From an uncultured Pseudomonadales bacterium (GTDB lineage Bacteria; Patescibacteriota; Microgenomatia; UBA1400; PJMF01), in the NCBI GenBank assembly GCA_964633875.1, contig CAZWKL010000001.1:193841-257840 (forward strand): a stretch of 64,000 nucleotides of DNA. The letters run 5' to 3'. The notes below the pieces were generated by a model that worked only from the letters and a program-made list of their open reading frames with translations, was not told the DNA's origin and made no database searches. A program made the translations under genes and the position numbers. Below, in pieces: positions 953-59,835 of the stretch. Position 1 is the stretch's first letter; each line of letters begins with the position of its first letter.

Positions 953-1831
953 TTAAAACTCGATTTGAGCAATTGCCTCAACAATAGGGGTAAATTTAAT
1001 TTCCAGCTCTCGCTGCAATTTTTCTGAGTTTAAAGCGGTATTTTTTTGGTAAGGCCGGTTGAGGCTGGCCAGATAACTATTGAGATCACCGGCTTGAATT
1101 TCGCTGTTAAAACCGTGAGCGTTTTTAATTGCCAAGGCAAAATCATAATCAGACCACTTTTCTCCACTGGCAGCATGGTAAAGACCGGTGCGGTTTTGGG
1201 CAATGACGGCATCAAGCACTCGAGCAAAGTCCGGCAAGAAAGTGGGGCCGAAAAAGTGATTTTTGAACTGAGGGTATAAGCTGTTGTTTTGCAGCCCTCC
1301 AACGATGCTATGGGCAATGTCTTTTTTAGGAAACGGTTTGGGCTTGAAAGGCTGGTCGATTCTGAGAATAGTCCAAGACAGCCCTTCAATATTCTGAATG
1401 ATCGTTTCCGCTTCAGCCTTGGTTTGGCCATACCACTCAATCGGGTTGATGGGGTCGTTCTCGAGGTAAAGCTCTGTTTTTTCACCATTAAAAACATAGG
1501 CGGTTGAAATGTGAATCAAGTGCTGGTTGTTTTTTTGAGCCTCTAAAGCAAGATTTTCAGTGCCAGTGACGTTAACTTTATAAGCCAGGCCATCTTTGTT
1601 ACCACGCTGCTCCCAGGCAGCGGTAACATCGGTAAAGGCCGCCAGATGAATAATCGCTTTAGCTTTAGATTCACCTAAAACTCGTGCCACCGCCTTACGG
1701 TTAGTAATATCAACCGGATTGACTGGATTACTAATATCTACTGGCTCAATCAAGTACTTATCACTAAAACTACTAATAAAACTTGAAGCTACCAAACCAT
1801 TAGAGCCAGTCACTAAAACGGGTTGCTTCAT
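953..1831 (-). CDS. rmlD: dTDP-4-dehydrorhamnose reductase (RmlD)
   Basis: Short SDR with VLVTGSNG and the ISTAYVFNG (STDYVFDG-like) RmlD motif. The likely start is the internal Met MKQPVLVTG, which overlaps the rmlC stop as ATGA. Confidence 0.8.
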   Translation of the reverse strand: MKQPVLVTGSNGLVASSFISSFSDKYLIEPVDISNPVNPVDITNRKAVARVLGESKAKAIIHLAAFTDVTAAWEQRGNKDGLAYKVNVTGTENLALEAQKNNQHLIHISTAYVFNGEKTELYLENDPINPIEWYGQTKAEAETIIQNIEGLSWTILRIDQPFKPKPFPKKDIAHSIVGGLQNNSLYPQFKNHFFGPTFLPDFARVLDAVIAQNRTGLYHAASGEKWSDYDFALAIKNAHGFNSEIQAGDLNSYLASLNRPYQKNTALNSEKLQRELEIKFTPIVEAIAQIEF

Positions 1832-2478
1832 GCAAATTTTTCCGGGTACTTGTCCCTGAGTGAGACAGAGCTTCTGTCTCTTTCCGAAATAATCATTTTT
1901 TCTTGAGGAATTGGCCAATTGACAGCCAGATCTTTATCAAATAAGGAGATAGCCAGGTCGTTATTGAGGTTGCGCCCAGCATACAGGGCATCAACGGCGT
2001 AAAGGTAATATGCTGGCCCTTCTAGCACCGCGAACGAATTGGCCAGCCCTCGGGAAATGTACAAAGAACCCTGTAGCTCGCCTTCATCCGGACCAAAAAC
2101 AAAAGTTTCGACTTTCCCAAACGTGGCGGAGCCAGGACGGACGTCGGCCAGGGCGGAGAAACACCGGCCGGTTAGCACGGTAGCCAGTTTATTCCAATCC
2201 TCAGCGTGCATACCTCTAGCGACATTAGTAACAGACATCGACAAGTTGGTTTGTTTGATCATAAACTTGTCACCGGTCAGCTCGTCAATTTCTGGAACGC
2301 GTGCCAGCTCGGTGTAAAAACCGCGATTGTCGGCAAATATCCGGTGAGGCAGGTAGTAAAGGCCATCAATGCCGGTGCTGAACACCCCTGGACGTAACTC
2401 TTCGGCCTCTTCTTTTGAGTAGCTAAAACTTATCACTGGCGCCTTTCTGTCATTTTGCTGGTTGATAATTAGCTGCAA
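1828..2478 (-). CDS. rmlC: dTDP-4-dehydrorhamnose 3,5-epimerase (RmlC, cupin)
   Basis: DNRGFYTE...RGMHAE resembles the RmlC core (D.RGFF...RGLH). It sits between rmlB and rmlD. Confidence 0.8.
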   Translation of the reverse strand: MQLIINQQNDRKAPVISFSYSKEEAEELRPGVFSTGIDGLYYLPHRIFADNRGFYTELARVPEIDELTGDKFMIKQTNLSMSVTNVARGMHAEDWNKLATVLTGRCFSALADVRPGSATFGKVETFVFGPDEGELQGSLYISRGLANSFAVLEGPAYYLYAVDALYAGRNLNNDLAISLFDKDLAVNWPIPQEKMIISERDRSSVSLRDKYPEKFA

Positions 2479-3469
2479 AAAAGTCTTGGCTTTTTAATTT
2501 GAGCGGTTGCCACCACTGTGGATTAGCTCTGTACCAATCAATAGTTTTGCTTAGGCCTTCTTCAATAGTCACTGAAGGCTTCCAGCCAAGGTCGCGATTA
2601 ATTTTTGTCCAATCCACACTGTAGCGCTTGTCGTGTCCGGCCCGGTCTTTAACATGTTCAATCATCTCGGTAGAAGCGCCCATGAGCGAGATAATCATTT
2701 CCAGCACTTGCTTGTTGGGGACGTCTTCAGTCAGGCCGCCCACCAGGTAAGTTTCGCCATTGTTGGCGTTATTAAGCACGACCTCGATAGCCGAACAATG
2801 ATCTTGCACGTACAGCCAGTCGCGCACTTGCAGGCCATCGCCGTAGAGTGGCACTTTTTTACCCTCAAGTAGCTGAGTAACGGCCAGGGCAATAAATTTC
2901 TCCGGGTGTTGGTACTCGCCGTAGTTGTTGGAGCAATTGGTGATGGTAAAAGGCAAACCGTAAGTTTCGCCGTAAGCGCGAACTAGATGGTCTGAGCCAG
3001 CTTTGCTGGCTGAATAAGGGCTGCGCGGATCATAGGGTGTGTTTTCATTGAACTGCTTATCGCTGCCCAGTTCCAGCGTGCCGAAAACTTCGTCTGTGGA
3101 AATGTGATGAAATTTTTTAATTTTGTGAGTCAAGGCAGCGTCCAACAAAACCTGAGTGCCCATGATATTAGTTTCCAAAAACACTGCCGGATTGAGAATT
3201 GATCTGTCTACGTGGCTTTCAGCCGCAAAATGAACAATCATCTCTACGTCTGCCACAATTTTATTAACCAACTCACGGTTAATAATATTGCCCTCCACAA
3301 AAGTGTAATTGGGATTGGTTTTCAAAGTCGCAAGATTTTCAAGATTGCCGGCATAAGTGAGAGCATCCAGATTGATGATTTTATCCTCGGGGTATTTTTT
3401 CATCCAGTAATGAATGAAGTTTGAGCCGATAAAGCCGGCTCCTCCGGTCACCAAAAGAGTATTGCTCAT
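2450..3469 (-). CDS. rmlB: dTDP-glucose 4,6-dehydratase (RmlB)
   Basis: N-terminal LLVTGGAGFIGSNF with catalytic YSASKAGSDHLVRAY, and an overall RmlB-like length of 339 aa. Confidence 0.9.
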   Translation of the reverse strand: MSNTLLVTGGAGFIGSNFIHYWMKKYPEDKIINLDALTYAGNLENLATLKTNPNYTFVEGNIINRELVNKIVADVEMIVHFAAESHVDRSILNPAVFLETNIMGTQVLLDAALTHKIKKFHHISTDEVFGTLELGSDKQFNENTPYDPRSPYSASKAGSDHLVRAYGETYGLPFTITNCSNNYGEYQHPEKFIALAVTQLLEGKKVPLYGDGLQVRDWLYVQDHCSAIEVVLNNANNGETYLVGGLTEDVPNKQVLEMIISLMGASTEMIEHVKDRAGHDKRYSVDWTKINRDLGWKPSVTIEEGLSKTIDWYRANPQWWQPLKLKSQDFFAANYQPAK

Positions 3470-3640: not shown

Positions 3641-4735
3641 TTATTCGGTTTGACTAATTATAGCCGATTCGTTGGTGAAAATACTTTGCACTTGTTTTTC
3701 CAGAGCAGTTTGATCACGGACAGCATAAACCCACTGATTTTGATAAGCACGCACCGGCGGATGCCAAAGAGCGCCACTTTCGTCATCGGGGTAAATGGTG
3801 AGTGAGTGTGGGTTGAGGGCAATATCTTGGCGCACTGGAGCGAGTTGTTTCACTAAAGCCGCCAACTCGACTATGGGCAGGTACTGATCATATTGGTTGA
3901 GATAATGCTGGTAGAGTTTGCCCAAAAGCGCCAGGTCAAGGATGATATCGGGACTCATGATTTTCTGAATCAGCGAGTTAATAACCAGTTGTTGACGCTC
4001 AGACCTGGCTAGATCGTGACCTTGATCATCATCGCTGTGACGACTGCGAATATACTCCAGGGCTCTCTCCCCACTCATGGTTTCCGGACCCTCCACAAAC
4101 GTCACGGTTTTGTAAAGTTTGGCAGGATCCCGTTCGACTGTGACGTCAACATCAGAGCGCGGAAACTGCTCATCGGTAAAGCCCTGAGGCACGTCTATCT
4201 TGATACCGCCAATTAAATCAACCAACTCAGCCAGCGAATCCATAGAAATCACCACCGTATGATGAACTGGCACATCGAGCATCTCAGCGATAGTTTCAGC
4301 GGGAAATCTCTCCGGCTCAGTCGGGTAGCGCTCTTGTCCGTAATAGTAAAGAGCATTGATTTTGGTAAGGTAGGTATCGCTCCAAAGGTCTCGGGGCAGC
4401 GATAGGGTATTGATCCGGCCGCTGGGAAGGTGAACAGAGGCTAACATGATGGTGTCTGTGAGCGGCGGCGCTCCTCCACGATTTTCGTGAGAATCAATGC
4501 CTAGAATCAGGATGTTTTTGTAATCGTTGCTGGCAATGACGGGAGTCTGCCAAGCTTCCTGAGCTAAAGCTCTCATTTCTGTGAAAGTCAGACCGGAATG
4601 CTCAGAAAATATTTTTAGTTGAGAGTAAAGGTAAAAACCCATGCCGCCGGCAAAAACTGCTGAAAAAACAAAAACCACTGCCAAACCGGACAAAATTACT
4701 ACCAAAAGCCTCTTAGCCAGCTCTTTATTTGTCAT
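3641..4735 (-). CDS. LytR-CpsA-Psr (LCP) family glycopolymer-to-peptidoglycan phosphotransferase
   Basis: N-terminal TM, then ILILGIDSHENRGG...DTIMLASVH...TLSLPRDLW, which is the LCP core. Confidence 0.85.
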   Translation of the reverse strand: MTNKELAKRLLVVILSGLAVVFVFSAVFAGGMGFYLYSQLKIFSEHSGLTFTEMRALAQEAWQTPVIASNDYKNILILGIDSHENRGGAPPLTDTIMLASVHLPSGRINTLSLPRDLWSDTYLTKINALYYYGQERYPTEPERFPAETIAEMLDVPVHHTVVISMDSLAELVDLIGGIKIDVPQGFTDEQFPRSDVDVTVERDPAKLYKTVTFVEGPETMSGERALEYIRSRHSDDDQGHDLARSERQQLVINSLIQKIMSPDIILDLALLGKLYQHYLNQYDQYLPIVELAALVKQLAPVRQDIALNPHSLTIYPDDESGALWHPPVRAYQNQWVYAVRDQTALEKQVQSIFTNESAIISQTE

Positions 4736-4788
4736 ATTTATTGTTCTAATCTTATCACTCTTCCTTGTTTTAGGTTACAATAATTTCT

Positions 4789-6480
4789 ATGAACTTGAAA
4801 CGGCTGTTTGTACCACTTGCTCTGGTAATAATTATTTTTGCTTGTAGCTGGTCGCTATTCCGTCCTGGTTTATTCGTTGTGCATGATTATCTTCACGCGG
4901 CCAGGATTGGAGAAATGGTCAGCATGCTGGCCGATGGCCAGCTGCCTCCCCGGTGGAGCAGTAATTTTGGTTTTGGGTATGGAATGCCACTTTTTCAGTT
5001 TTACGCGCCGCTACCTTATTTGCTTGGTTCCGCCTTTCATTTTGGCGGCTTACCCCTGGAACTAAATATCAAATTGCTGTTTATCCTCACCAATATCATG
5101 ACCGCAGTCGGGACATACTTATTGGGTAAAAGATTGTTTGGAATTTATGGCGGAATTTTTGCCGCTGCCGCTGTGACGCTGGCTCCTTATCGGGCGCTAA
5201 ATTTGTTTGTCCGGGGGGCATTAAGTGAAGCCTTTGGCATGATGTTTTTTCCTTGGATTTTACTATCTTTGTACTTAATTATTATCGAAAACCGCTCCCG
5301 TTATTGGTTGTTACTCAGCGTTGCTGTCACGGCGCTGCTGTTGAGTCATAATTTGTCTGCCTTGATTTTCCTGCCTCTATCGGGAATCACGGCCTTGGGC
5401 ATGATTGTTTGGAAAAAATACTCTCAAGGCAGTAAGCTGGAGTTGCGTCAAAGTTTGTTTAGCTTAATTAAAGGATACAGCTTGGCAGCGCTGATTTCTG
5501 CGTTTTACACCGTGCCGGCGCTGTTGGAGAAAAGTCACACTAAAGTGGACCAATTTATTGTCGGTGGCTATTTTGATTACGCCGTGCATTTTTTGGGACT
5601 CAAGCAATTTTTCACGGAAAATTGGGGTTATGGGGCTTCGGCTTACGGCATGTATGATGAGATTTCTTTCTACCTGGGTTTTGGCCAAATTTTGGCCTTG
5701 GGAACGGCGTTGTTAGTGTTGATAGCCCTGATGATTAAAAACAAAAATATCAAAAGTTACGTCCCAAGTTTTTTTTGGGCAGGACTGCTGTTGATCACTC
5801 TTTATTTCACTCATGGTAAGTCGAAATTTGTTTGGGATTGGGTTGAGCCGCTCAAGTATCTGCAATTTCCTTGGAGGTGGTTAAGCGCCGCCACTCTTTT
5901 CCTAGCTTTATTCTCGGGGAGCGTGTTGGCCTTGTTGAAGCCAAAATTGAGTAAGTTGGTGTTCGTGAGCTTCTCTGTTTTAATAATTTTAGTCAATTGG
6001 CGCTATTTTACTCCGAGCGAATACTTGGAAAACAACAGCGAGCTTTATTATCTGGACGAGGCGCGGATCAAAAACGAGCTGAGCTACATTTTGCCTGATT
6101 ACATTCCTGTCGAACTTGAAGCAAACCTTGAACCGGCCAAAACTGAGTTTTTCGACGAGTACGCAGGATTGGAAGTAATCTCGTTCAACTCGGTGAGCAC
6201 AGAAATTAAAACCCATTTTGAGGAGGCGCAAACAATTATCTTTGCCCGGGCTGATTATCCTGGTTGGAAAGTTTATCTCAACGGCAAAGAAACCGCCAAG
6301 AGAGTGACGGAATCGGGTTTGATTGGCGTGGCGGTGCCTGCTGGCGAGAATCAAGTGGAAGTGAAGCTGGAAGCGACTCGAGTGAGGCAAGTCAGCGACC
6401 TCGTTGCTGCTGTTGGGTTGGTAATTTTGTTATTCTTCGCTACACTTGAGCTTATTAAAGGACAAAAAGCGCATGCCTGA
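4789..6480 (+). CDS. PTPS-related/YfhO-like polytopic membrane protein (putative GT-C fold glycosyltransferase)
   Basis: HDYLHAARIGEM..ADGQLPPRW...FGYGMPLFQFYAPLPY is the signature N-terminus of the '6-pyruvoyl-tetrahydropterin-synthase-related' membrane protein family. About 12 TM helices plus a C-terminal extracytoplasmic domain. Confidence 0.6.
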   Translation: MNLKRLFVPLALVIIIFACSWSLFRPGLFVVHDYLHAARIGEMVSMLADGQLPPRWSSNFGFGYGMPLFQFYAPLPYLLGSAFHFGGLPLELNIKLLFILTNIMTAVGTYLLGKRLFGIYGGIFAAAAVTLAPYRALNLFVRGALSEAFGMMFFPWILLSLYLIIIENRSRYWLLLSVAVTALLLSHNLSALIFLPLSGITALGMIVWKKYSQGSKLELRQSLFSLIKGYSLAALISAFYTVPALLEKSHTKVDQFIVGGYFDYAVHFLGLKQFFTENWGYGASAYGMYDEISFYLGFGQILALGTALLVLIALMIKNKNIKSYVPSFFWAGLLLITLYFTHGKSKFVWDWVEPLKYLQFPWRWLSAATLFLALFSGSVLALLKPKLSKLVFVSFSVLIILVNWRYFTPSEYLENNSELYYLDEARIKNELSYILPDYIPVELEANLEPAKTEFFDEYAGLEVISFNSVSTEIKTHFEEAQTIIFARADYPGWKVYLNGKETAKRVTESGLIGVAVPAGENQVEVKLEATRVRQVSDLVAAVGLVILLFFATLELIKGQKAHA

Positions 6481-7939
6481 AACTGAGCTAGCGATTATTA
6501 AACGCCGGTCGTTGGTGGGAGCGATCTCATACTTCCTCAGAACCTTGGTGCTACAAGGCATTGGTTTTATTTCCATTATAGTTTTGAGTAAATTTTTCTC
6601 ACCTGAGGACTTTGGGATTTACGGCATTGTCATTCAAATTATCGGGATTTTGATTTTCTTTTCCGATATTGGTTTGGCCGCTTCTTTGATTCAGAAAAAA
6701 GCAGAGCCCACTAAAAAAGATTTGCAAACAGTTTTTGCTATTCAACAAATCTTGTCCTGGCTAATTGTGGGCGCAGTAGTGCTTTTAAGCCAGCTGGCCT
6801 TAATCCAGAACAAACTTGGACCTGATGGCACTTGGGTTTTGTATGCTTTGGCTATTTCTTTCCCGCTGGCCACCCTCAAGACTATCCCCTCAGTAATTTT
6901 GGAAAGAAAGTTGGAGTTTTCCAAGTTGGTGCTGCCACAAATATTTGAACAACTGGTTTTTCACAGTATTCTGATTTATTTGGCTTGGAACGGTGTGGGA
7001 GTTTTGGCTTATGCTTACGCAGTCATTGCCCGCTCAATTATTGGCGTGATAGTGATGAGCCTGATTCAACCCTGGCCGTTTGGCATCCGGCTGGACAAAA
7101 AGTCATTACTGGGACTGATTAATTTTGGAGTCAAGTTTCAACTCAACGACTTTCTGGCTAGAGTTAAAGATCAGCTTTTTTATCTGACTCTAGGTTTGGT
7201 TATTCCCACTCGCCAGTTTGGTTATATTCAGTGGGCTAAAAGTTGGTCGATGTATCCTTATAATTTAACTGTCCAAAATGTTTTAGCCATCACCTTTCCC
7301 AGTTTTTCACGCTTACAACATAATAAAGCGGCGCTAGCTAAAGCTATAGAAAAATCTCTTTTCTTTATCACTTTGGTTATTTTTCCCATTATAGTTGGTA
7401 TGTCTTTGTTTATTATTCCTTTACTGACTTTGATTCCTGATTATCAAAAATGGCTGCCAGCCGCTGCCAGCTTGATTCTGTTTAGTGCCAGTATTGCTTG
7501 GGGAGCAGTTTCTACCCCACTCACCAACACCCTCAACGCCATCGGCCAAATCAACCAAACCCTCAAACTCATGCTTTTATGGACGACACTTACCTGGATA
7601 CTGACTCCGGTTTTGTATGTTCTTTTGGGTTTCAACGGTGTTGCTTGGGCGGCGTTATTGATCAGCTTTACTTCAGCGCTGTCGGTTTATTATGTGCAAA
7701 AAGCAGTCTCGTTCAGTTTTCTGGACCAAGTTTGGCGACAGACTCTCGCTAGCCTGGTGATGGTGGTGCTTGGCTTGTTTGGTTGGCAGTATTGGCAGCA
7801 AGGTTTTACTCAACTACTAACAGGAATGCTCTTGGTAGGAGCCAGCTATCCGGCTGTACTTTTATTGATAGGAAAAGATAAAATACTTTCAGAAATCAAC
7901 TTGATACTAGCTATTGTCCGCCGGAAAGGAACAGCGTGA
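6473..7939 (+). CDS. wzx: Wzx-type oligosaccharide flippase (MOP/PST family)
   Basis: About 12-14 TM segments and a polysaccharide-biosynthesis-protein-like architecture. The start ATGCCTGA overlaps the upstream stop. Confidence 0.8.
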   Translation: MPETELAIIKRRSLVGAISYFLRTLVLQGIGFISIIVLSKFFSPEDFGIYGIVIQIIGILIFFSDIGLAASLIQKKAEPTKKDLQTVFAIQQILSWLIVGAVVLLSQLALIQNKLGPDGTWVLYALAISFPLATLKTIPSVILERKLEFSKLVLPQIFEQLVFHSILIYLAWNGVGVLAYAYAVIARSIIGVIVMSLIQPWPFGIRLDKKSLLGLINFGVKFQLNDFLARVKDQLFYLTLGLVIPTRQFGYIQWAKSWSMYPYNLTVQNVLAITFPSFSRLQHNKAALAKAIEKSLFFITLVIFPIIVGMSLFIIPLLTLIPDYQKWLPAAASLILFSASIAWGAVSTPLTNTLNAIGQINQTLKLMLLWTTLTWILTPVLYVLLGFNGVAWAALLISFTSALSVYYVQKAVSFSFLDQVWRQTLASLVMVVLGLFGWQYWQQGFTQLLTGMLLVGASYPAVLLLIGKDKILSEINLILAIVRRKGTA

Positions 7940-8844
7940 GTTTATCTGCAGTGATCAACACCAAAAACGCCGTTAGCTCCAACTTTGACCATAAATTTGA
8001 GGACACTCTCAAGTCTGTCAAGTTTGCTGATGAAATTGTTGTGGTGGATATGCACAGTAGTGACGCAACGGTTAAAGTCGCCAAAAAGTACACTGATAAA
8101 ATTTTTGAATTTGATGATCTGGGCTTTGTGGAACCTGCCAGAAATTTCGCTATTTCCAAGGCCACTCAGGAGTGGGTGTTGATAGTAGACGCTGACGAAA
8201 TTATCAGTCCCACCCTAAAAAAACGTATCCAAGCCTTGGTGGGCGGTGATGCTACCGCCGATGCTTATTTCCTGCCGAGAAAAAATATTGTTTTCAAACG
8301 CTGGTACGAGCACGCCGGTTGGTGGCCGGATTATCAGCTCAGACTTTTTAAGAAAGAAGTAGTCACTTGGTCTGACAAAATACATTCTCAGCCAAGAATT
8401 AAAGGCACCGCTGATTACTTGGCCAAACGCGAGGACTACGCCATCGTTCACTACAACTACCAAACAGTCGAGCAGTATATTGAAAGGCTTAACCGCTATA
8501 CCAGTCACGAAGCACGGCAGCGTGAACAAAAAAATATTACGGGCGGCACCATCGTTGAGTCATTTAGCGCCGAAGCCATGAGCCGGCTTTTTCTTCATCG
8601 TGGGGTAGACGCTGGCGCTCACGGAGTTGGTATTTCTCTCTTGCAAACTTTTTATGAAGTGGCGGTAGTGCTAAAGCAGTGGGAGCTCCAGGGTTTTCCC
8701 AAATCAGATAACAAAAATGACACCATCAAAGAATTGGAAGCGTTGCAGTTTACCCTCAACTTTTGGTTAGCTGATTGGCACGCAAAAAATAATAAAGGTA
8801 TTTCTAGGCTTATTTGGAGGCTCCGGCGCAAGCTTGGGTTATAA
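7936..8844 (+). CDS. Glycosyltransferase family 2 (KdtX/WaaE-like subfamily)
   Basis: SAVINTKN...ADEIVVVDMHSSD..T..A..Y and a DADE motif. GTG start overlaps the wzx stop. Confidence 0.8.
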   Translation: MSLSAVINTKNAVSSNFDHKFEDTLKSVKFADEIVVVDMHSSDATVKVAKKYTDKIFEFDDLGFVEPARNFAISKATQEWVLIVDADEIISPTLKKRIQALVGGDATADAYFLPRKNIVFKRWYEHAGWWPDYQLRLFKKEVVTWSDKIHSQPRIKGTADYLAKREDYAIVHYNYQTVEQYIERLNRYTSHEARQREQKNITGGTIVESFSAEAMSRLFLHRGVDAGAHGVGISLLQTFYEVAVVLKQWELQGFPKSDNKNDTIKELEALQFTLNFWLADWHAKNNKGISRLIWRLRRKLGL

Positions 8845-8851
8845 TAATATC

Positions 8852-10587: not shown

Positions 10588-10595
10588 AAAAACCC

Positions 10596-11702: not shown

Positions 11703-11717
11703 TATGATAAGCCCAAT

Positions 11718-44780: not shown

Positions 44781-45359
44781 ATGTTTGCTTTAATTACGGG
44801 AAAACCTCTTATTTTCAAAGATCAACTGATTCTTGATGTTAATGGGGTTGGTTATGATATTCAGGCCAGCAACGCCACTCTTCAACACTGCGCCAACCAA
44901 GATGAAGTTTCTTTACACATTTATACTCATGTTCGTGAAGACAGAATTGAGCTGTATGGCTTTGTTCAGCCACAAGAAAAGGAGTTGTTTGAGCTGCTCA
45001 TCGATGTGTCCGGGGTTGGTCCCAAGACTGCCTTGAGCATTACTGAAAAGGGTAGTGCCGCTTTGGTAGAAGCCGTGCAGCAAGCCAATGTTGCCTTTTT
45101 TAATAAAGTACCTCGAGTGGGTAAAAAATCTGCTCAAAAAATTATTATTGAGCTGAAAACCAAGTTGGGTGGGCTGAAGGACCTGGATCTCAAGCCTCTC
45201 TCCAGCAAAGAGTGGGAAATTAGCGAGGCGCTTCAATCTCTGGGTTTTTCCGAAAGTGACAGCGAGATGGTTTTAAAACAACTGGACGTGGAGGAGTTGG
45301 CTCTTGAAGAAGCCGTACAAAAGGCGATACAGTTAATGGGCAAAAGGCAGTATGAATAG
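44781..45359 (+). CDS. ruvA: Holliday junction branch-migration protein RuvA
   Basis: MFALITGKP....VNGVGYDIQ...GVGPKTAL (HhH), immediately upstream of ruvB. Confidence 0.8.
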   Translation: MFALITGKPLIFKDQLILDVNGVGYDIQASNATLQHCANQDEVSLHIYTHVREDRIELYGFVQPQEKELFELLIDVSGVGPKTALSITEKGSAALVEAVQQANVAFFNKVPRVGKKSAQKIIIELKTKLGGLKDLDLKPLSSKEWEISEALQSLGFSESDSEMVLKQLDVEELALEEAVQKAIQLMGKRQYE

Positions 45360-46990: not shown

Positions 46991-46999
46991 ACTAAAATT

Positions 47000-48007: not shown

Positions 48008-48010
48008 AAT

Positions 48011-49744: not shown

Positions 49745-49747
49745 ATT

Positions 49748-52413: not shown

Positions 52414-52418
52414 GAAAA

Positions 52419-53279
52419 ATGCTAGAAATTATCATCGTCAATTACAACAGTCAATTCTGGTTGAAAAAAACTCTCACTTCGCTCAAAGAAGAGTACTTGG
52501 ATCAAACTAAAACCAAGGTTAAGGTCACCGTTGTTGATAATGGTTCTGAAGATGATTCGCTCAAGATGCTCAGAAGAGAGTATAGGTGGGTAGATATTGT
52601 TGAACTGGGTCAAAATCATGGTTTTGCTTATGCCAATAACCGCGCTCTGGAAAAATCTAAAGCTAAGTATGTGATGTTGTTGAACTCAGACGTCGAATTT
52701 ACTTCCCAATCAAACTTGGATGTTTTGCTGGAGTTTATTGAAACTCATCCTCAAGTGGCCGCCATCAGTCCCAGGGTAGAGTTCACCAACGGCGAGATTG
52801 ATCCTGCCAGCCACCGTGGCGAGCCCTCACTTTGGCCATCTATTACTTACATGTTGGGTCTGGAAAGTCTTTTTCCCAAAAGCAAGTTGTTTGGCCAGTA
52901 TCATCAGTTTTATAAAGACTTGTCTTCAATCCACGTAGTGGACGCCGTTTCGGGAGCGGCCATGATTGTTAGGCAAGCGGCTATTGCTGAAGTTGGTTTG
53001 TTAGATGAACGATTTTTCATGTATGCTGAAGACCTGGATTGGTGCAAACGCTTTCGCGAAGCCGGCTACCAAATTATTTTTCATCCAGAAGTAAAAGTCA
53101 TCCATCACAAAAATAAATCGGGTATAAAAAGTAGTTCGCAAAAAATTGCCAGAAAAACCAGAAGATACTTTTATGACACCATGTTACAATACTACGATAA
53201 ACACTATAAAGATTTGTATCCAGGTTTTTTTAGGTCAGTAATTAAGTACATATTAGTTATTAAAAAAGGAGCACTCTAA
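52419..53279 (+). CDS. Glycosyltransferase family 2 (WbbL-like)
   Basis: LEIIIVNYNSQFWL...VVDNGSEDDS...NSDV...YAEDLDWC. Confidence 0.8.
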   Translation: MLEIIIVNYNSQFWLKKTLTSLKEEYLDQTKTKVKVTVVDNGSEDDSLKMLRREYRWVDIVELGQNHGFAYANNRALEKSKAKYVMLLNSDVEFTSQSNLDVLLEFIETHPQVAAISPRVEFTNGEIDPASHRGEPSLWPSITYMLGLESLFPKSKLFGQYHQFYKDLSSIHVVDAVSGAAMIVRQAAIAEVGLLDERFFMYAEDLDWCKRFREAGYQIIFHPEVKVIHHKNKSGIKSSSQKIARKTRRYFYDTMLQYYDKHYKDLYPGFFRSVIKYILVIKKGAL

Positions 53280-53785
53280 TGCATTCCCCAATCTATTTTG
53301 AAATAAGAGATCTGCGCGCCCAGAATACTCAAAAAGTTTTGGAGGCTATTTTGGTAGTTTTGGCTGCGCTTTTCGTCATCGCCTTGCTGCCGTCACTTTT
53401 GTATACCTACGTTTACGCTCAGGCTCAACTGTTGGAACAACCGCTGTTACTGGAATTACTGCCGGTGGTTACCTTTGCTCTCGCAGTTTTATATGTAATT
53501 TATGTGGTTGTCGGCAACATTCGCCGCACCAACCAAATCAAAGCTCTCAAGCTTCAAGTGGCTGAGTATGTCAATTTTGGCAAAGATACTGCTGATGAGA
53601 TGATCACTCAAAAAGAACTTGACGAATTGGAGAACATCGTCGAACAAGCCATTAGCGAAGTCGAAGGAGCTGAAGCCAAAACCGGCAGAAGAAAAGCCTC
53701 CAGAAAGTCAGCTGCCAGAAAAACCAGTGCTAGAAGAACCACAAAGCCAGCTGCTAAAAGGAGAGCTACTAAGAAAAGTAAATGA
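53279..53785 (+). CDS. Small bitopic/2-TM membrane protein with coiled-coil and Lys/Arg-rich C-terminal tail
   Basis: Two hydrophobic helices (VLEAILVVLAALFVIALLPSLLY; LLPVVTFALAVLYVIYVVVG), an acidic helical segment, then KTGRRKASRKSAARKTSARRTTKPAAKRRATKKSK. 1-bp and 4-bp overlaps with the flanking GT genes. Confidence 0.5.
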   Translation: MHSPIYFEIRDLRAQNTQKVLEAILVVLAALFVIALLPSLLYTYVYAQAQLLEQPLLLELLPVVTFALAVLYVIYVVVGNIRRTNQIKALKLQVAEYVNFGKDTADEMITQKELDELENIVEQAISEVEGAEAKTGRRKASRKSAARKTSARRTTKPAAKRRATKKSK

Positions 53786-54873
53786 GAATTGGCATAGATT
53801 GCCGGCTCGCAGGAACCAAGCACGCAGGCATAGGTAGGTATATTGAAAACCTCCTGCGCCACGCCTTAACAAACAACAATCACAACTGGGTGCTGTTTTT
53901 CTACGATGAAGAACAGGCCCAGTTAGTTTTGGGAAAGCTCTTCGGCCTGCCGCACGTTGCAATTATTTATTCACCAGTAAAGCATTATTCCGTTGCTGAG
54001 CAACTGAAGATGCCTGTTTATTTTTACCAAGCCAAACTCGACTTACTCCACGTTCCTCATTTCAATGCTCCTCTTTTGTATTTCAAACCTTTCGTAGTAA
54101 CCATCCATGATTTACTTTGGCATCAACACCGTGGTTCAGCTGTCACCACTCTCAGCGCCCTGCAATACTGGCTTAAATACTTTTCTTATCGACTGACTGT
54201 GCGCAACGCTATTATGCGGGCCAGAAAAGTGATTGTACCGGCAAAAACAATTAAGCAAACGGTTGGCGAACGTTTTCCCATGGCTAAAAATAAAATCAAA
54301 GTAACCTATGAGGGTGTAGAAAAGTCACTGTTGAAAACAACTACCGAAAAACGCAAAAAAAATACTTTGCTTTATGTTGGCTCGCTTTACCCACACAAAA
54401 ACGTCCGCTTGGTGATTGCCGCCCTACACCAACTGCCCCAATACAAACTGGAACTGGTAGGATCCAGAAATATTTTCGTCAAACAAACTCAAGATTTTAT
54501 CAACTCTTTAGGATTGCAAAAACAAGTGCGCTTTCTCGGGTATTTGCCTGATCAGGCGTTGCAGAAAAAATACGCCCAAGTGACGGCCTTAGTGCAACCC
54601 TCCTTGTCGGAAGGCTTCGGTCTCACGGGAGTAGAAGCTATGGCTCAAGGCACACCCATTTTGGCATCTGATATTCCCATTTTTCGTGAAATTTATGGCG
54701 ATGGAGCAATTTTATTCAACCCACACAAAATTGCTGCTTTTGTGGCTGCGATCAAAAAACTAGAAACCACAAAACTAGACTCCCTCAAAGAAAGAGCTAA
54801 AAAAATTGCCAATAGTTACAGTTGGCAGAAAATGGCCAAACAAACTATCTTTATTTATGAAAAAGCTCTCTGA
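53782..54873 (+). CDS. Glycosyltransferase family 4
   Basis: PSLSEGFGLTGVEAMAQGTPIL. Confidence 0.8.
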   Translation: MRIGIDCRLAGTKHAGIGRYIENLLRHALTNNNHNWVLFFYDEEQAQLVLGKLFGLPHVAIIYSPVKHYSVAEQLKMPVYFYQAKLDLLHVPHFNAPLLYFKPFVVTIHDLLWHQHRGSAVTTLSALQYWLKYFSYRLTVRNAIMRARKVIVPAKTIKQTVGERFPMAKNKIKVTYEGVEKSLLKTTTEKRKKNTLLYVGSLYPHKNVRLVIAALHQLPQYKLELVGSRNIFVKQTQDFINSLGLQKQVRFLGYLPDQALQKKYAQVTALVQPSLSEGFGLTGVEAMAQGTPILASDIPIFREIYGDGAILFNPHKIAAFVAAIKKLETTKLDSLKERAKKIANSYSWQKMAKQTIFIYEKAL

Positions 54874-56086
54874 TCTGGCCGTTGCTTTCGTTTATGACAA
54901 AGCTACCACTCCATATGGTGGCGCTGAGCAAGTCATTAAATCTTTGCACAGCATTTTTCCAAATGCGCCACTTTTCACTTCTGTCTTTAATAAAAATGCT
55001 CTCAACTGGACAAAGGGTATGGAAATCCAACCCTCCTTTCTGCAAAAATTACCATATTTCAAAAATCATCCACAATTACTGGCAGCCTTGATGCCGATGG
55101 CCTTTGAATCACTCAATTTAGACAATTACGACCTGATCATTTCTGTTACCAGTGGGGAAGCTAAGGGTGTGATTACCAAGCCGCACCAACTTCATCTTTG
55201 TTACTTACTCACTCCACCGCGCTATATTTATTCTCATCGTCTGGAATACCTCGACGCTCAATTAATCACCCGACTGCCTATACTCCGGCAAATTGCTCAC
55301 GCTCTGTTGGATTACCTGCGCTGGTGGGATCAGGCAGCTATTCATCGTCCGGATTTTATCGTACCAATTTCTGAATTAGTTAAAAGCAGAGCAGCAACCT
55401 ATTATTCCCGACCTAGTGAGGCGGTTTTGTACCCGCCTGTACCGGAAATTTCAGAATCCAAAAAAGAGATCGGTTCCCTGCCTATTTCAGAATTTTATCT
55501 TTGCGCTTCAAGGTTGGTTCGGTACAAAAGAATTGATTTAGCCATCAAAGCAGCTCTCTATCTTCATAAAAAACTGGTGATCGTCGGTACGGGCAACCAA
55601 CAAAAAGCACTGATTAAATTAGCCGGCAAAAGAGCGGCAGTACGCCGCCAAGACGAAACTTTAACAAAATTCTTTCACCGGACAACCGATAAAAACATCT
55701 TGTTCGTAGGAAAAACTACCAACTCGAACTTACTACAATTGATGCAACACACTCGAGCGCTACTAATGCCGGGTATAGAAGATTTTGGTATCACCGCTCT
55801 TCAAGCTAATCTTTATGGCAAACCGGTAATTCTTCACCAAAAAAGTGGCGCTGCTGAGTTGATTGAAAACCAGGTTCACGGCCTGCATCTAGAAGAAGAA
55901 AGTGAGTCAGCTTTGATCGCGGCCATAAAAAAACTTGAGGTAACAAGCCTAGATTCGAACCGTTTAATCAAAAATGCCCAGCGTTTTAAAACCCAATCTT
56001 TTACTACCCAATTCAGCAAAAAAGTGTATGATTTGTTCATAACATACTCGAAAAATCTGAGGAAAGGCGTTCATGAATCACCTTGA
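54857..56086 (+). CDS. Glycosyltransferase family 4
   Basis: Internal Met MKKLSDLAVAFVYDKATTPYGGAEQ (GT4 N-terminus). GT-B C-domain. Confidence 0.75.
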   Translation: MKKLSDLAVAFVYDKATTPYGGAEQVIKSLHSIFPNAPLFTSVFNKNALNWTKGMEIQPSFLQKLPYFKNHPQLLAALMPMAFESLNLDNYDLIISVTSGEAKGVITKPHQLHLCYLLTPPRYIYSHRLEYLDAQLITRLPILRQIAHALLDYLRWWDQAAIHRPDFIVPISELVKSRAATYYSRPSEAVLYPPVPEISESKKEIGSLPISEFYLCASRLVRYKRIDLAIKAALYLHKKLVIVGTGNQQKALIKLAGKRAAVRRQDETLTKFFHRTTDKNILFVGKTTNSNLLQLMQHTRALLMPGIEDFGITALQANLYGKPVILHQKSGAAELIENQVHGLHLEEESESALIAAIKKLEVTSLDSNRLIKNAQRFKTQSFTTQFSKKVYDLFITYSKNLRKGVHESP

Positions 56087-57176
56087 TCATACTTACGCAG
56101 TTATTTTGGCCGGCGGCGGCGGCACTAGGCTTTGGCCAAAATCACGAACCAAAACACCCAAACAATTTCTCAAGCTCCTGAGCGAAAACACACTCATCCA
56201 GCAAACAGCCAACCGCATTACCAAACTCATTCCTTGGGAAAGAGTTATTGTAGTAACCAACAAAAAATATCAAAAAGATGTCGAGAAACAATTGCCAAAT
56301 GTCCTTAAAGAAAATATTATTGGTGAGCCGCAAAAACGCGACACTGCCCTAGCCATGTTGGTCGGCTCACTTTTTGCTAAAAATCTTGATCCTAAAGCAG
56401 TGGTCATTAATCTGGCTTCCGATCATGGCGTCACCGATGAAATCGAGTTTGTTAGAGTAATTAACTCAGCCGCTCAAGTAGCAGCGGAGAGCGATTATTT
56501 GGTCACTGTTGGTATCACTCCCACCCACCCATCAACTGGTCTTGGTTACATCAAAATCGGCCAAGACATCAAAAAGTTGGCAAATAGCCTGACTCTTTTT
56601 AAAGTGGAAAGCTTTACCGAAAAACCCAACGAAGCCACCGCTAGAGGATTTATTTCTACCGGCAAGTATTTCTGGAATGCCAACAACTACGTCTGGAATG
56701 TTGATACTTTAGAACGAACATTTCAAAAATACATGCCAGAAATGTGGCAGCAAGCCAAGATTCTTTCCGGCCTTTCGATTCAGAAATTTCACGACCAACT
56801 TGAAGATCTATATGAGCAAGCCGAGTCAATCTCGATTGATTATGCGGTTTCTGAAAAAGCAGACAACTTAGTGCTCATTCCCGGTGATTTTGGCTGGAGT
56901 GATGTCGGTGATTGGAAAGTGGTTTATGATCTGGAAAAAAAGAATATTTCCGGCAACGTCGTTTTGGGGGAAGGCACTAATATTCACACTCTTTCTATTG
57001 AATCCCACAACAACTTAATTCATACTAATGGCCGGTTGGTGGCCATTGTTGGTGTGAATGACCTGGTGATCATTGACACTGATGAAATCTTGATGATCGT
57101 GCCTAAAAACAAAACCCAGGATGTAAAAAAAATAGTCACTCGCCTCAAAGAAGAAAAACAGAAAGAATATCTTTAG
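56073..57176 (+). CDS. manC: Mannose-1-phosphate guanylyltransferase (GDP-mannose pyrophosphorylase, ManC/CpsB-like, no PMI domain)
   Basis: YAVILAGGGGTRLWPKSRTKTPKQFLKL N-terminus and ...GDFGWSDVGDW nucleotidyltransferase signatures. Confidence 0.8.
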   Translation: MNHLDHTYAVILAGGGGTRLWPKSRTKTPKQFLKLLSENTLIQQTANRITKLIPWERVIVVTNKKYQKDVEKQLPNVLKENIIGEPQKRDTALAMLVGSLFAKNLDPKAVVINLASDHGVTDEIEFVRVINSAAQVAAESDYLVTVGITPTHPSTGLGYIKIGQDIKKLANSLTLFKVESFTEKPNEATARGFISTGKYFWNANNYVWNVDTLERTFQKYMPEMWQQAKILSGLSIQKFHDQLEDLYEQAESISIDYAVSEKADNLVLIPGDFGWSDVGDWKVVYDLEKKNISGNVVLGEGTNIHTLSIESHNNLIHTNGRLVAIVGVNDLVIIDTDEILMIVPKNKTQDVKKIVTRLKEEKQKEYL

Positions 57177-57185: not shown

Positions 57186-57806
57186 ATGCAATACGAACAG
57201 CAAAAACGAATTTTGGATCTTCTGGTGGCAGTCGTGTTAACGATCCTGTTTTTACCCATTTGGATTATTGTGCCATTTTTGATTTATCTTGAATCCGGCA
57301 CGCCCATAATTTTCAAACATCGGCGCGTGGGCCAGGGCGGTGAAGAGTTTTACCTTTATAAATTTCGCTCAATGATTAAAAATGCTGATGAGATTCTCCA
57401 CAAACATAACAAAAAATTGCTGAAAAAATTTAAAGAAAATGATTGGAAAATTGAAAATGACCCCAGAGTGACTACGCTCGGCAAAGCCTTGAGGTCGTTG
57501 ACAATTGATGAGTTTCCACAAATTTATAATGTCCTCAGGGGCGAGATGAGCATGGTAGGGCCGAGAGCCTATGTTAAAAAAGAACTGGCAGAACAATCAA
57601 AGCGCTATCCCAAAACCAAAAACTTGATTAGAAACATCGTTTCTGTCAAACCGGGGATTACCGGCCCGTGGCAGACAAGCGGCAGAAACGAGATTCCTTT
57701 TGCCACTCGAGCTAAAATGGACGCCGATTACGCCCAAAAACGCTCCATCATCGAAGACATTAAAATCCTTTTGAAAACCCCGCGCGCCATGATTTCCAAA
57801 TGGTAA
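57186..57806 (+). CDS. Initiating polyprenyl-phosphate phosphoglycosyl transferase (small PglC/WbaP C-domain type bacterial sugar transferase)
   Basis: Single N-terminal TM, then PIIFKHRRVGQGGEEFYLYKFRSM...DEFPQ...MSMVGPRA, the Bac_transf core. Confidence 0.85.
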   Translation: MQYEQQKRILDLLVAVVLTILFLPIWIIVPFLIYLESGTPIIFKHRRVGQGGEEFYLYKFRSMIKNADEILHKHNKKLLKKFKENDWKIENDPRVTTLGKALRSLTIDEFPQIYNVLRGEMSMVGPRAYVKKELAEQSKRYPKTKNLIRNIVSVKPGITGPWQTSGRNEIPFATRAKMDADYAQKRSIIEDIKILLKTPRAMISKW

Positions 57807-57834
57807 GCTGGCAAGACCTTAAATATTTGCTAGA

Positions 57835-59835
57835 ATGTGGTTTATGTTCAATTTTTCTACTGCTCAAATACCATTGCTGAAAAGAAAAAAGGCAGTTCCT
57901 GATACTGATGGAGTAGACACCAAAGCAACTGCGCTGGCAATGGATGGCACACTCAAATTACCCTGGTATCGCCGGCTAAGCAAACTACAAATTGGTCTGC
58001 TGGCAGGAGTAATAATTTTACTAACCGCCCTGATTACCATTGGTATTTTTACTTATGTGATAGCTAAAAACTTGTCCGTCCAAGCAAGAGAGGCCGAATT
58101 TACTGCCATGGAGGCTTATGACGCCTTTAAAGGCCAAAATCTGCCTTTAACAGAGGAAAAACTTTTGGTTTTGGATGCTCAACTGCAGGATTTTACTACT
58201 ACCTACAAACAGCTTTCCTTCTATAAATTTGTGCCTTTTGCCAAAACTTACTATCTTGACGGTGAGCATGGTTTGAAAGCAGCCGCGGCAGGTATGTCGG
58301 CTGGAGAAAAAGCCATCGCCGCCATTACACCTTACGCCGACGTGCTGGGCTTTACCGGCGAAGACTCTTTTGAAGGCGGCACTACCGAAGACCGGATTAA
58401 GGTGATTTTGGACACCATTGATTTAGTTATGCCTGTTTTCAATGATATGACTGCTGATCTGCAAATCATGGAACAAGAATTGCTTGAGATAGATCCTAAT
58501 GATTATCCTGAGTCTTTGGCGGGTAAACCGGTAAGACAATACGTCGAGCAAGTCCATGAACTAGCAAGCGGAGCAGTCACTGCTGTTACTGAGTACCGGC
58601 CAGTGATTGAGCAAATTCCTTACGTGGCCGGCGCCAATGGCGAAACCAGAAAGTACCTGATCTTGTTCCAAAACGACAACGAATTACGCCCCACCGGCGG
58701 TTTTCTTACCGCTTACGCCATTATTAATGTCACTGACGGGAAAGTTGAGGCTCAAAAATCTGATGACATTTACGAGCTTGATCAAAAATTCCGGGCTAAC
58801 TTGCCGATTCCGGAAAAACTCGGCAGGTACCTTACCTCGGAGCGGTACTGGAACTTGAGAGATATGAATGTTTCACCCGACTTCAAGTCTTCCATGGATA
58901 CTTTTTTTGAGAATTATCAAAACGTTCCTGGCGAACCCTCAGACGAGATTGATGGCATTATTGCTGTTGATACTCACTTTCTTACCAACTTACTCACCGT
59001 GTTGGGGCCGGTAGCAGTGCCTGGATACGGTACTTTTTCTTCAGAAATTGATCCGCGCTGCGACTGTCCACAAATCATTTACGTACTTTCCGAAATCATT
59101 ACCCGTCCCACTCCATACATGCGCGAGGACAGAAAAGGCATTCTTGGCCCGCTCATGAGCGCGATTCTCAGCAAAGCCTATGGTGCACCTAAACAACAGT
59201 GGCCCGATCTTTTCGCCACCGGTTTTGCCAGCGTGCAAAATAAACACGCTCAGTTCTACTTCCTTAATGACGACATTCAAAAAGCCGCTGAAACTGTTGA
59301 AGTTGCAGGCAGAATGCTTCCGGTCGAAAACTCAGACTTCTTGGCCATCATCAACTCCAACTTGGCCGGAGCAAAATCCAACCTCTTTATTAATTACGAC
59401 GTCAAACAAACCGTTGCCGAGCCTGAAAGCGGTTATATCACTAAAACTGTAGAAATAACCTACCGCAACACCCGCCGCGCTGACAACTGCAATCTTGAGG
59501 CCGGCCTGCTTTGCCTCAACGCCACTCTCAGAGACTGGACCAGAATTTATGTGCCCGCCGGCTCCGAACTGATTCAAGCCCAAGGTTTTTCCGAAGAACC
59601 GGAAACATACGAAGAAAGTGGCTTCACCGTCTTTGATGGCTTTTTCACCTTAGAGCCGCTGGCTCAAGCCAAGCTGGTCCTGACTTACAAAGTTCCTTAC
59701 TTAGACACACAAAATTATCGCTTGCAAATCTGGAAACAGGGCGGAATTGAATCTTACAAATCTCTGCTTGATGTTACTGGCGGCCAAGAAGAAGTCTGGG
59801 TGGAAAAAGACACCACCTATCAGGTTGTTTTCTAA
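57835..59835 (+). CDS. DUF4012-domain protein (N-terminal membrane anchor, large extracytoplasmic domain)
   Basis: N-terminal TM, then the YLILFQNDNELRPTGGFLTAYAIINV motif typical of DUF4012. Confidence 0.7.
   Translation: MWFMFNFSTAQIPLLKRKKAVPDTDGVDTKATALAMDGTLKLPWYRRLSKLQIGLLAGVIILLTALITIGIFTYVIAKNLSVQAREAEFTAMEAYDAFKGQNLPLTEEKLLVLDAQLQDFTTTYKQLSFYKFVPFAKTYYLDGEHGLKAAAAGMSAGEKAIAAITPYADVLGFTGEDSFEGGTTEDRIKVILDTIDLVMPVFNDMTADLQIMEQELLEIDPNDYPESLAGKPVRQYVEQVHELASGAVTAVTEYRPVIEQIPYVAGANGETRKYLILFQNDNELRPTGGFLTAYAIINVTDGKVEAQKSDDIYELDQKFRANLPIPEKLGRYLTSERYWNLRDMNVSPDFKSSMDTFFENYQNVPGEPSDEIDGIIAVDTHFLTNLLTVLGPVAVPGYGTFSSEIDPRCDCPQIIYVLSEIITRPTPYMREDRKGILGPLMSAILSKAYGAPKQQWPDLFATGFASVQNKHAQFYFLNDDIQKAAETVEVAGRMLPVENSDFLAIINSNLAGAKSNLFINYDVKQTVAEPESGYITKTVEITYRNTRRADNCNLEAGLLCLNATLRDWTRIYVPAGSELIQAQGFSEEPETYEESGFTVFDGFFTLEPLAQAKLVLTYKVPYLDTQNYRLQIWKQGGIESYKSLLDVTGGQEEVWVEKDTTYQVVF

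Follow-up and report, generated by a model that had tools for sequence, protein, structure and literature searches.

A composite 59-kb glycan locus with ruvCAB inside it, in an uncultured Patescibacteria bacterium, and its proposed role in making a peptidoglycan-anchored heteropolysaccharide

The 64,000-nucleotide stretch analyzed here, called the window throughout (positions 193,841 to 257,840 of contig CAZWKL010000001.1, assembly GCA_964633875.1), carries between trmD and recO a locus (953–59,835) consisting largely of genes for glycan synthesis, with ruvCAB lying among them. Open reading frames (ORFs) of at least 100 residues were listed, giving a non-nested set of 62, and Pfam was searched with 60 of these (304 to 62,713); NCBIfam, sequence searches of the Protein Data Bank (PDB), and AlphaFold2 (AF2) models compared by Foldseek were used on selected proteins. 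The locus comprises 56 ORFs at a coding density of 98.6% and encodes 26 glycosyltransferases (GTs) and one phosphoglycosyl transferase, the GT genes filling about half of its roughly 59 kb. GTs usually account for about 1–2% of a genome's genes, and the locus stands far above that figure. Ten GTs belong to GT2 (PF00535 above cutoff), nine to GT4 (PF00534 above cutoff), and seven are of the GT-C type: four recognized by Pfam, one by AF2 and Foldseek, one by transitive homology, and one by motif only. An earlier note, made by reading the sequence without database searches, had counted about 27 GTs in these proportions (about 10 GT2, 9 GT4, and 7 GT-C), and the Pfam and NCBIfam scans bear it out without reassigning the ORFs to other functions. 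The two Wzx flippases, Wzy_C protein, ABC flippase, LCP (LytR-CpsA-Psr) ligase, O-acetyltransferase, and toxin–antitoxin pair that it listed are all present by domain search, as are rmlBCD, the UDP-xylose synthase (UXS) gene, manC, and the DegT and GNAT genes. Pfam also shows two clear methyltransferases and a weak one, and three short-chain dehydrogenase/reductase (SDR) epimerases or dehydratases besides RmlD and the RmlB-type dehydratase; five ORFs have no assignable function. Nine strand switches split the locus into ten same-strand gene blocks.

The locus opens on the minus strand with genes of the dTDP-rhamnose branch, rmlD (953–1918; PF04321, 156 bits), rmlC (1828–2478; PF00908, 105 bits), and an rmlB-type 4,6-dehydratase gene (2450–3469; PF16363, 276 bits). 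Left of trmD lie just housekeeping genes, and the right boundary is formed by recO, glyS, and the dcw cluster. A left module (3641–12635) follows, headed by the LCP ligase gene on the minus strand (3641–4735; PF03816, 101 bits; one N-terminal transmembrane helix, residues 10–28) and continuing on the plus strand with a PTPS_related/YfhO-like GT-C (4789–6480; PF10131 at 35 bits, above cutoff, with YfhO and PMT_2 below cutoff), a first Wzx-type flippase (6446–7939; PF13440, 160 bits; 12 transmembrane helices), three GT2 genes (7936–8844, 8834–9766, and 9763–10587), a GT4 gene (10566–11702), and another GT2 gene (11718–12635). The module is collinear in one related contig (L084) at 81.5% nucleotide identity and in GCA_964455555.1 (L087) at 44–76% amino-acid identity, the cytoplasmic GTs reaching 55–76%. 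In both, and in a third contig (L092), the LCP gene holds the same position, and GT-C 4789–6480 is conserved in the first two. Judged by gene order and identity, the left module, together with the GT-C array to its right, is conserved in closer relatives.

Four polytopic ORFs of the locus are Pfam-negative (12661–13767, 13764–15305, 15350–16408, and 32792–34720), and the first three follow the left module on the plus strand. The protein encoded at 13764–15305 matches neither Pfam nor NCBIfam. Over 230 homologues were found; those that carry a name all belong to Microgenomates, Pace-, Woese-, or Beckwithbacteria, and apart from one stray EpsG match the homologues are Pfam-free. Directly after the first transmembrane helix, F35, D38, and D42 are invariant in the family. 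With an AF2 model built from 66 sequences (predicted local distance difference test, pLDDT, 95), the top Foldseek match in the PDB was ArnT (5f15; E=3e-7, TM-scores 0.57/0.55), and 20 further informative matches were all GT-C enzymes (ALG12, STT3, ALG9, PglB, AftA/B, Pmt1, DPY19, EmbC, and AftD). The modeled fold places the protein among the GT-C enzymes, in an unannotated family so far seen only in the candidate phyla radiation (CPR). In two relatives (L087 and L088) this family occurs as adjacent arrays of diverged paralogues, 26–30% identical, beside other large Pfam-negative membrane ORFs. The preceding gene, 12661–13767, has a weak PMT match (E=0.057) and a PMT-type loop-1 motif, SDSELY...EHPPLAKY, kept in two homologues (L084 and L087); it probably encodes a GT-C as well, the weakest of the GT-C calls.

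The next gene, 15350–16408, encodes a conserved membrane protein of 352 residues and about eight helices that matches no Pfam or NCBIfam family and is left unclassified here. Its 47 homologues are unnamed, and the labelled ones are all from Patescibacteria; the motif AGEEISWGQR (residues 208–217) is invariant, as is NxQxE..HN (231–240). Its AF2 model (pLDDT 90) has no fold relative in the PDB, the best Foldseek match having E=0.66. In the window and in two relatives (L084 and L086) the gene stands after a GT-C gene of the 13764–15305 type. Aligning the two new family profiles with hhalign gave no signal, nor did a phmmer search for paralogy among the membrane proteins of the locus.

A GT2 gene (16421–17218; PF00535) and a GT4 gene (17196–18248; PF00534), both on the plus strand, lead into the middle of the locus (about 18–39 kb). 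Here a GalE-like UDP-hexose 4-epimerase gene (18263–19183, plus; TIGR01179, 229 bits, below cutoff; PDB 4zrm, 191 bits) and the gene for a UDP-glucuronate 4-epimerase-like SDR (19869–20879, plus; best PDB match 5u4q, 314 bits, followed by the Bacillus cereus UDP-glucuronate 4-epimerase UGAepi, 6zl6, at 195 bits) occupy the places for which UDP-uronate epimerases had been proposed, a description that holds for the second only. Between the two, on the minus strand, sits a non-glycan pair, an HTH_3 antitoxin gene (19185–19490; PF01381) and a Gp49/HigB-like toxin gene (19522–19851; PF05973), with a GC content of 0.35–0.39; the pair is kept in L084. This spot is marked as an indel hotspot by additional genes that L084 carries there (its positions 16785–19714).

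Further plus-strand genes of the middle encode a GtrB/ArnC/PgfS-type GT2 (20931–21842; PF00535) and a fused MsbA/HepA/PglK-like ABC exporter (21856–23613; PF00664 and PF00005). The ArnC model aligns over residues 2–288 of the 316 of the GT2, and PgfS scores 116 bits, both below the equivalog cutoffs; with two C-terminal transmembrane helices (232–250 and 262–280), its predicted architecture is that of a polyprenyl-phosphate glycosyltransferase. The exporter scores 334 bits with MsbA, 330 with HepA, and 324 with PglK, all below cutoffs, and is a candidate lipid-linked glycan flippase. Then come a DegT/DesI-like 4-aminotransferase (23606–24727; PF01041, 369 bits), closest to DesI-type dTDP-4-keto-6-deoxyglucose aminotransferases at 325 bits, below cutoff; a GNAT protein (24727–25248; PF13302); the weak methyltransferase (25248–25934); an ATP-grasp protein (25931–26944; PF21360/PF02655; PRK12767-3 at 366 bits, above cutoff); and two GT2 enzymes (26948–28006 and 28829–29848; PF00535) flanking a methyltransferase (27978–28832). 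On the minus strand follow two GT4 genes (29864–30970 and 31613–32749; PF00534) with a methyltransferase gene between them (30967–31623).

The fourth Pfam-negative membrane protein (32792–34720, plus) consists of a membrane domain (residues about 4–410) and a C-terminal domain of about 190 residues. It has 531 relatives in a library clustered at 50% identity, and among 57 of them sampled, 13 match GT87, five PIG-M, and two PIG-U; by transitive homology, its membrane domain is GT-C-like. Beside it, on the minus strand, are a PMT_2-type GT-C (34632–36641; PF13231 at 32.8 bits, above cutoff; 13 transmembrane helices) and two unexplained genes, one for a membrane protein with three transmembrane helices and a weak TIG/IPT match (36638–37228; E=1.3e-4), the other for a soluble protein of 194 residues with no family match (37312–37896). 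A second Wzx-type flippase gene (37978–39261, plus; PF01943, 59 bits; likewise of the 12-helix class) closes the middle.

Base composition and comparison with relatives set the middle apart. Between 24300 and 31600 lies a low-GC island of 7.3 kb, with a GC content of about 0.29 (0.26–0.33) against 0.42–0.50 outside, whose right edge is sharp, at about 31.6 kb, on a methyltransferase/GT4 junction; it holds the GNAT and ATP-grasp genes, two GT2, one GT4, and two or three methyltransferase genes. Scans for tRNAs and Rfam families, the only landmark searches made, found none in it. The middle differs from that of L084, which has an additional GT-C of 399 residues, a shortened SDR (epimerase), an additional GNAT, and a PIN toxin–antitoxin pair, and from that of three other related contigs (L002–L004), in which other genes, including one for UDP-galactopyranose mutase, lie left of the UXS gene; a homologue of the second Wzx gene is at the same place in two of these (L003 and L004). 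The best reading is that the middle is a variable, partly horizontally acquired part of the locus. In a Pacebacteria-labelled relative (L094, 96–3368) and a Woesebacteria-labelled one (JGI 3300042731), a giant Wzy_C-domain protein of 1,090–1,140 residues is encoded upstream of the UXS gene, where the window has its second Wzx gene.

What we call the core (39258–59835) begins on the minus strand with the gene for UXS, a UDP-glucuronate decarboxylase (39258–40256), an assignment supported by 288 bits with human UXS1 (PDB 2b69) against 158 bits for the next enzyme class. All other core genes are on the plus strand: a PMT_2/PMT-type GT-C (40352–41872; Pfam above cutoff), two GT4 genes (41885–43030 and 43023–44228; PF00534), ruvC (44232–44768), ruvA (44781–45359), ruvB (45352–46362), a WcaF-like hexapeptide (Hexapep) acetyltransferase (46382–46990), a GT2 (47000–48007; PF00535), the Wzy_C protein (48011–49744), a PMT_2/PMT-type GT-C (49748–51214; Pfam above cutoff), a GT4 (51211–52413; PF00534), a GT2 (52419–53279; PF00535), a small protein with two transmembrane helices (53279–53785), two GT4 genes (53782–54873 and 54806–56086; PF00534), and a ManC-type nucleotidyltransferase (56073–57176; NTP_transferase and ManC domains). 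Neither the Wzy_C protein nor GT-C 49748–51214 found a match in the PDB sequence search. The Wzy_C domain scores 50 bits, with E=0.0014 for the repeat-unit polymerase model and a weak match to a "putative O-glycosylation ligase" model, and is common to ligases and O-oligosaccharyltransferases. The core ends with a small monotopic phosphoglycosyl transferase of 206 residues (57186–57806; PF02397, Bac_transf, 199 bits) and a membrane-anchored DUF4012 protein (57835–59835). The former had been called PglC-like, which is right for its minimal size; its catalytic domain is nearer to that of WbaP (138 bits against 94 for PglC). DUF4012 has been flagged as enriched in CPR and Gram-positive bacteria (PMC6744442), and the protein is a candidate accessory to chain-length control.

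Gaps across 40352–61817 are at most 28 bp, and the co-directional string runs on past the core through recO, glyS, a conserved transmembrane protein without assigned function (61898–62713), and mraZ (59850–63324); beyond mraZ, the source contig carries the dcw genes rsmH, those for a penicillin-binding protein (PBP) and mur ligases, murB, murA, and mraY. Spacing this tight would fit a transcript shared by ruvCAB and the neighboring GT genes.

This order is kept far beyond the nearest relatives. The core is collinear in L002–L004 at 44–70% amino-acid identity, and also in GCA_964455555.1 (L089), in a contig from the Logan assemblies (L090), in L094, whose RuvB is labelled Pacebacteria, and in a Woesebacteria-labelled JGI contig. 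Altogether, collinearity extends to at least eight related genomes. The block 46382–56086 is collinear in L002–L004, L089, L090, L094, L096, and L100, and the UXS gene is conserved in L002–L004, L015, L089, L090, and L094. In eight other genomes ruvCAB occupies the same position, where the gaps in the window measure 3–19 bp. At the right end, the order from the Wzy_C gene through manC, the phosphoglycosyl transferase and DUF4012 genes, recO, glyS, and the conserved gene of no assigned function to mraZ is retained with 27–49% protein identity in the most distant metagenome contigs, the stretch from manC to the DUF4012 gene keeping its order down to 37–49%, and the transmembrane protein 61898–62713 being 29–57% identical in L096, L098, and L100. 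A more distant genome (L015, contig CAZRWP010000004.1, labelled Pseudomonadales) has a minimal version, with UXS, GT-C, two GT4, ruvCAB, and acetyltransferase genes leading directly into mraZ and the dcw genes. As a control, 80 RuvB loci of species-representative genomes were examined; just four, each of CPR-like content, carry five or more genes of the glycan core at a distance of up to 10 kb, and the ruvCAB genes of Gottesman- and Daviesbacteria have neither GT genes nor trmD or recO nearby. Small foreign ORFs occur between ruvC, ruvA, ruvB, and the acetyltransferase gene in two relatives (L090, 8317–9294; L094, 8933–9307 and 11028–12258), encoding a 325-residue product, a DUF805 protein, a 115-residue product, and a KilA-N protein, in an otherwise intact block.

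These comparisons, in which the phylogenetic spread of the core was judged from about a dozen contigs, most likely reflect an ancient, vertically inherited block joined to ruvCAB, recO, glyS, and the dcw genes. Surface-glycan loci are normally hypervariable, and for such a locus this deep conservation and fusion to housekeeping genes are unusual. The earlier note had described ruvCAB as bracketed by glycan genes; ruvCAB does lie inside them, as an integral, conserved part of a co-directional string. The possibility that an insertion between trmD and recO recently came to bracket ruvCAB was considered and rejected: wherever the relevant lineage was examined, ruvCAB lies inside the glycan core. 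Nor is the locus a single unit; glycan genes run throughout, and they form a composite of ancient core, conserved left module, and variable middle.

The host is a Patescibacteria (CPR, Microgenomatia-like) bacterium. Its RuvB is closest, among species-representative genomes, to those of Patescibacteria UBA924 (70%), LaPlata bin-1529 (69%), and a Paceibacterota metagenome-assembled genome (66%), followed by Gottesman- and Daviesbacteria at 61%, and for RuvB and GT-C alike the nearest homologues come from Patescibacteria/Microgenomates. Near-complete related contigs measure 1.08–1.17 Mb, which suggests a host genome of about 1 Mb, in keeping with the small genome proposed before; the locus would then take up about 5% of it. 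One contig of GCA_964455555.1 carries both left module and core, on the same strand and separated by 50.9 kb compared with 31.6 kb in the window, with at least eight large membrane ORFs, several GT-C-like, after the left module; the homologous genes span at least 72 kb, as reckoned from two stretches with 29 kb between them unread. The "exceptionally large" size claimed for the locus is therefore probably apt against other bacteria, and within this lineage such loci are probably the norm.

We propose the following model for the function of the locus, to which we give a probability of roughly 0.6: the composite locus would build at least one peptidoglycan-anchored heteropolysaccharide, assembled on polyprenyl-phosphate and decorated outside the membrane. 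RmlB, RmlC, and RmlD would contribute to dTDP-rhamnose, ManC to GDP-mannose, and UXS to UDP-xylose, while the uronate epimerase would supply UDP-galacturonate, the GalE-like enzyme UDP-galactose, and DegT, GNAT, and ATP-grasp proteins together an N-acylated 4-amino-6-deoxyhexose. Synthesis would be initiated on polyprenyl-phosphate by the single phosphoglycosyl transferase (57186–57806), on the cytoplasmic side GT4 and GT2 enzymes would lengthen the unit, and the WcaF-like enzyme would O-acetylate it. The Wzx flippases, possibly along with the PglK/MsbA-like ABC exporter, would carry the unit across the membrane, where the Wzy_C protein would polymerize or ligate it and the LCP enzyme would join the polymer to peptidoglycan. 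The roughly seven GT-Cs would add side residues from polyprenyl-phosphate monosaccharides made by the GtrB/ArnC-type GT2 (20931–21842), with a second donor synthase perhaps provided by the GT2 and small transmembrane protein pair at 52419–53785, which we infer to resemble GacI/GacJ. The variable middle would diversify the surface. In Gram-positive bacteria, wall polymers are decorated by systems of a GT-A enzyme, a flippase, and a GT-C, the last often of the PMT_2, YfhO, or a Pfam-negative type (PMC8035078), and by analogy the decoration step may follow the logic of these multi-component transmembrane glycosylation systems. Because the core is deeply conserved and joined to ruvCAB, recO, glyS, and the dcw genes, a housekeeping wall polymer is suggested.

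Several points weigh against this model. Both the pathway and its product and acceptor, wall or protein, are deduced from gene families, order, and conservation. Only one initiating transferase is present in the window for what seems to be more than one pathway, and there is one clear polyprenyl-phosphate sugar synthase for some seven GT-Cs. Polymerase, ligase, and protein O-oligosaccharyltransferase cannot be told apart by the Wzy_C domain, and PMT-type GT-Cs can glycosylate proteins. The window ORFs include neither rmlA nor ugd and no member of the GtrA-type flippase family, and none in 304–62,713 matches a Wzz or polysaccharide co-polymerase (PCP) chain-length regulator at E<=0.001. Ten GT2 and GT4 enzymes were scanned against NCBIfam, and none reached a curated equivalog cutoff from which a sugar or linkage could be assigned, matches to rhamnosyltransferase subfamilies scoring 53–59 bits against a cutoff of 200. 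Finally, co-transcription with ruvCAB is suggested by gene spacing, and a scan for consensus promoters and terminators as operon limits gave results no different from shuffled sequences.

How does the locus compare with known systems? Closest in logic are the rhamnose-rich cell wall polysaccharide (Rha-CWPS) loci found in lactococci, streptococci, and enterococci (cwps, rgp, gac, and epa; PMC8035078, PMC9574508), which likewise place rml genes beside sets of GT2 and GT4 genes with LCP-type attachment, join a conserved part to a variable one, and include a GtrB/CsbB-type polyprenyl-phosphate GT, a flippase (Wzx-type in GAC), and PMT_2, YfhO, or Pfam-negative GT-C decorators; the GT2 and small transmembrane protein pair may recall GacI/GacJ. 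Unlike these, the locus described here has no Wzm/Wzt ABC-2 exporter (its ABC protein is of the fused MsbA/PglK type), no WecA/TagO-type initiator, and no GtrA-type flippase, encodes about seven GT-Cs where those loci have one to three, covers roughly double the length, and has a core conserved across deep lineages and interleaved with ruvCAB, recO, glyS, and dcw. Membership in the Rha-CWPS family was rejected, given that Wzm/Wzt and, in the window, rmlA are absent, no rhamnosyltransferase equivalog was found, and the sole PF00953 match is to mraY, a gene of the dcw cluster. With Wzx/Wzy capsule and O-antigen clusters the locus shares the Bac_transf initiator, Wzx, a Wzy_C membrane protein, the WcaF-like acetyltransferase, and ManC; it differs from them in that neither Wzz/PCP nor a tyrosine-kinase co-polymerase turned up, in its conserved rather than hypervariable core, and in lacking outer-membrane export, which would not be expected with the monoderm-like envelope of CPR. 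The arabinogalactan and lipoglycan machinery of mycobacteria and corynebacteria (Emb, Aft, the GT87 enzymes MptA/B, and PimE) has in common with it many GT-C paralogues, GT87-like relatives, LCP ligation, and lipid-linked monosaccharide donors. That relationship is one of fold and logic only, with no sequence-level orthology and another set of sugar nucleotides, and an essential wall-polymer status would be an analogy only.

What is the relevance of such a locus in a small genome? CPR/Patescibacteria are regarded as organisms attached to other cells, and very little is known of their envelope chemistry; the locus offers a concrete candidate for the pathway that makes this lineage's principal wall polymer. 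Among earlier descriptions, 20 GTs and rmlABCD were reported in one whole Parcubacterium genome (PMC5220378), and an "elaborate cell surface" has been described for CPR (PMC8080830); a literature search, itself incomplete, turned up general statements of this kind and no published CPR glycan cluster of the present type. All its individual parts fall into enzyme classes already known, and no new principle is implied; what comes to light are GT-C-type enzymes missed by current family databases and one conserved membrane protein without fold relative. Kept in the same order in Pacebacteria-, Woesebacteria-, and UBA924-type genomes, the core also offers a marker block for comparative genomics. We tentatively speculate, giving this only a minor share of the probability, that the core makes an essential wall glycopolymer defining Microgenomatia, in a role like that of teichoic acid or arabinogalactan, partly by means of CPR-only GT-C families and the 15350–16408 protein as partner, with the middle tuning how these episymbionts recognize hosts or are recognized by phages.

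The main product could instead be a protein glycan, with the Wzy_C protein acting as an O-oligosaccharyltransferase (PglL/PilO/WsaB-like) onto an S-layer protein or pilin and the PMT-type GT-Cs O-glycosylating secreted proteins. The O-glycosylation ligase model match to the Wzy_C protein fits this, as do PMT or PMT_2 matches in three GT-Cs (PF02366 at 42 bits in 49748–51214 and 26 bits in 34632–36641, neither with MIR domains) and the PMT-type motif in a fourth, and GT2 20931–21842 resembles both AglJ and PgfS, the latter from protein glycosylation in Streptococcus mutans. The slg clusters of Geobacillus and Paenibacillus and the S. mutans Pgf system share with the locus, between them, rml genes, a WbaP-type initiator, a Wzy_C-type (WsaB-like) transferase, and a PgfS-like GT2 with GT-Cs and an epimerase, and glycosylated S-layers have been suggested in the CPR literature (PMC5220378). 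In contrast to those systems, neither the locus nor its flanks contain a gene for an S-layer, pilin, or adhesin target; the left module begins with an LCP ligase gene, the locus adjoins the peptidoglycan cluster, a linkage that favors wall over protein, and wall-polymer decoration in Gram-positive bacteria usually falls to PMT_2, YfhO, and Pfam-negative GT-Cs (PMC8035078). We consider a protein glycan unlikely to be the main product, and protein O-glycosylation may coexist with synthesis of a wall polymer.

Still less probable, in our judgment, is that the whole 59 kb serves one pathway leading to one highly complex polymer, as might be supposed from the presence of just one each of phosphoglycosyl transferase, LCP, and Wzy_C protein and from the left module and core sharing a contig in GCA_964455555.1. 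Against it stand three export routes (two Wzx flippases and the ABC exporter), the sharply different conservation of the three parts, the minimal core of L015 that occurs without the remainder, and the division into ten same-strand blocks.

The two remaining alternatives have next to no likelihood. Derivation of many GT4 genes from anti-phage "conflict" systems, raised by PF20706 (GT4-conflict) matches in most GT4s, is contradicted by the much weaker scores of PF20706 than of PF00534/PF13692 in every one of these proteins, by the lack of partner defense genes, and by the conserved biosynthetic order in which the GT4 genes stand. An assembly or binning artefact joining unrelated glycan islands around ruvCAB might be suspected where the GC content falls to 0.26–0.33 over 24.3–31.6 kb, and we rejected a chimera, a possibility that the earlier note had left to be checked, because independent assemblies and many relatives reproduce the gene order. 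The window is contained in a metagenome contig of 202,543 bp in the European Nucleotide Archive (ENA; assembly ERZ27247346), identical RuvB with the same neighbors is found on four contigs, and the ATP-grasp gene of the island is present on five, one of them an independent Logan assembly (L083, 7.6 kb) that is 99.96% identical over 24523–32173 and spans the island's right junction.

As regards taxonomic labels, several RuvB matches at 70–72% identity are assigned by NCBI to Pseudomonadales or Vitreimonas (P0291, P0313, and P0378); these may be mis-binned CPR contigs.

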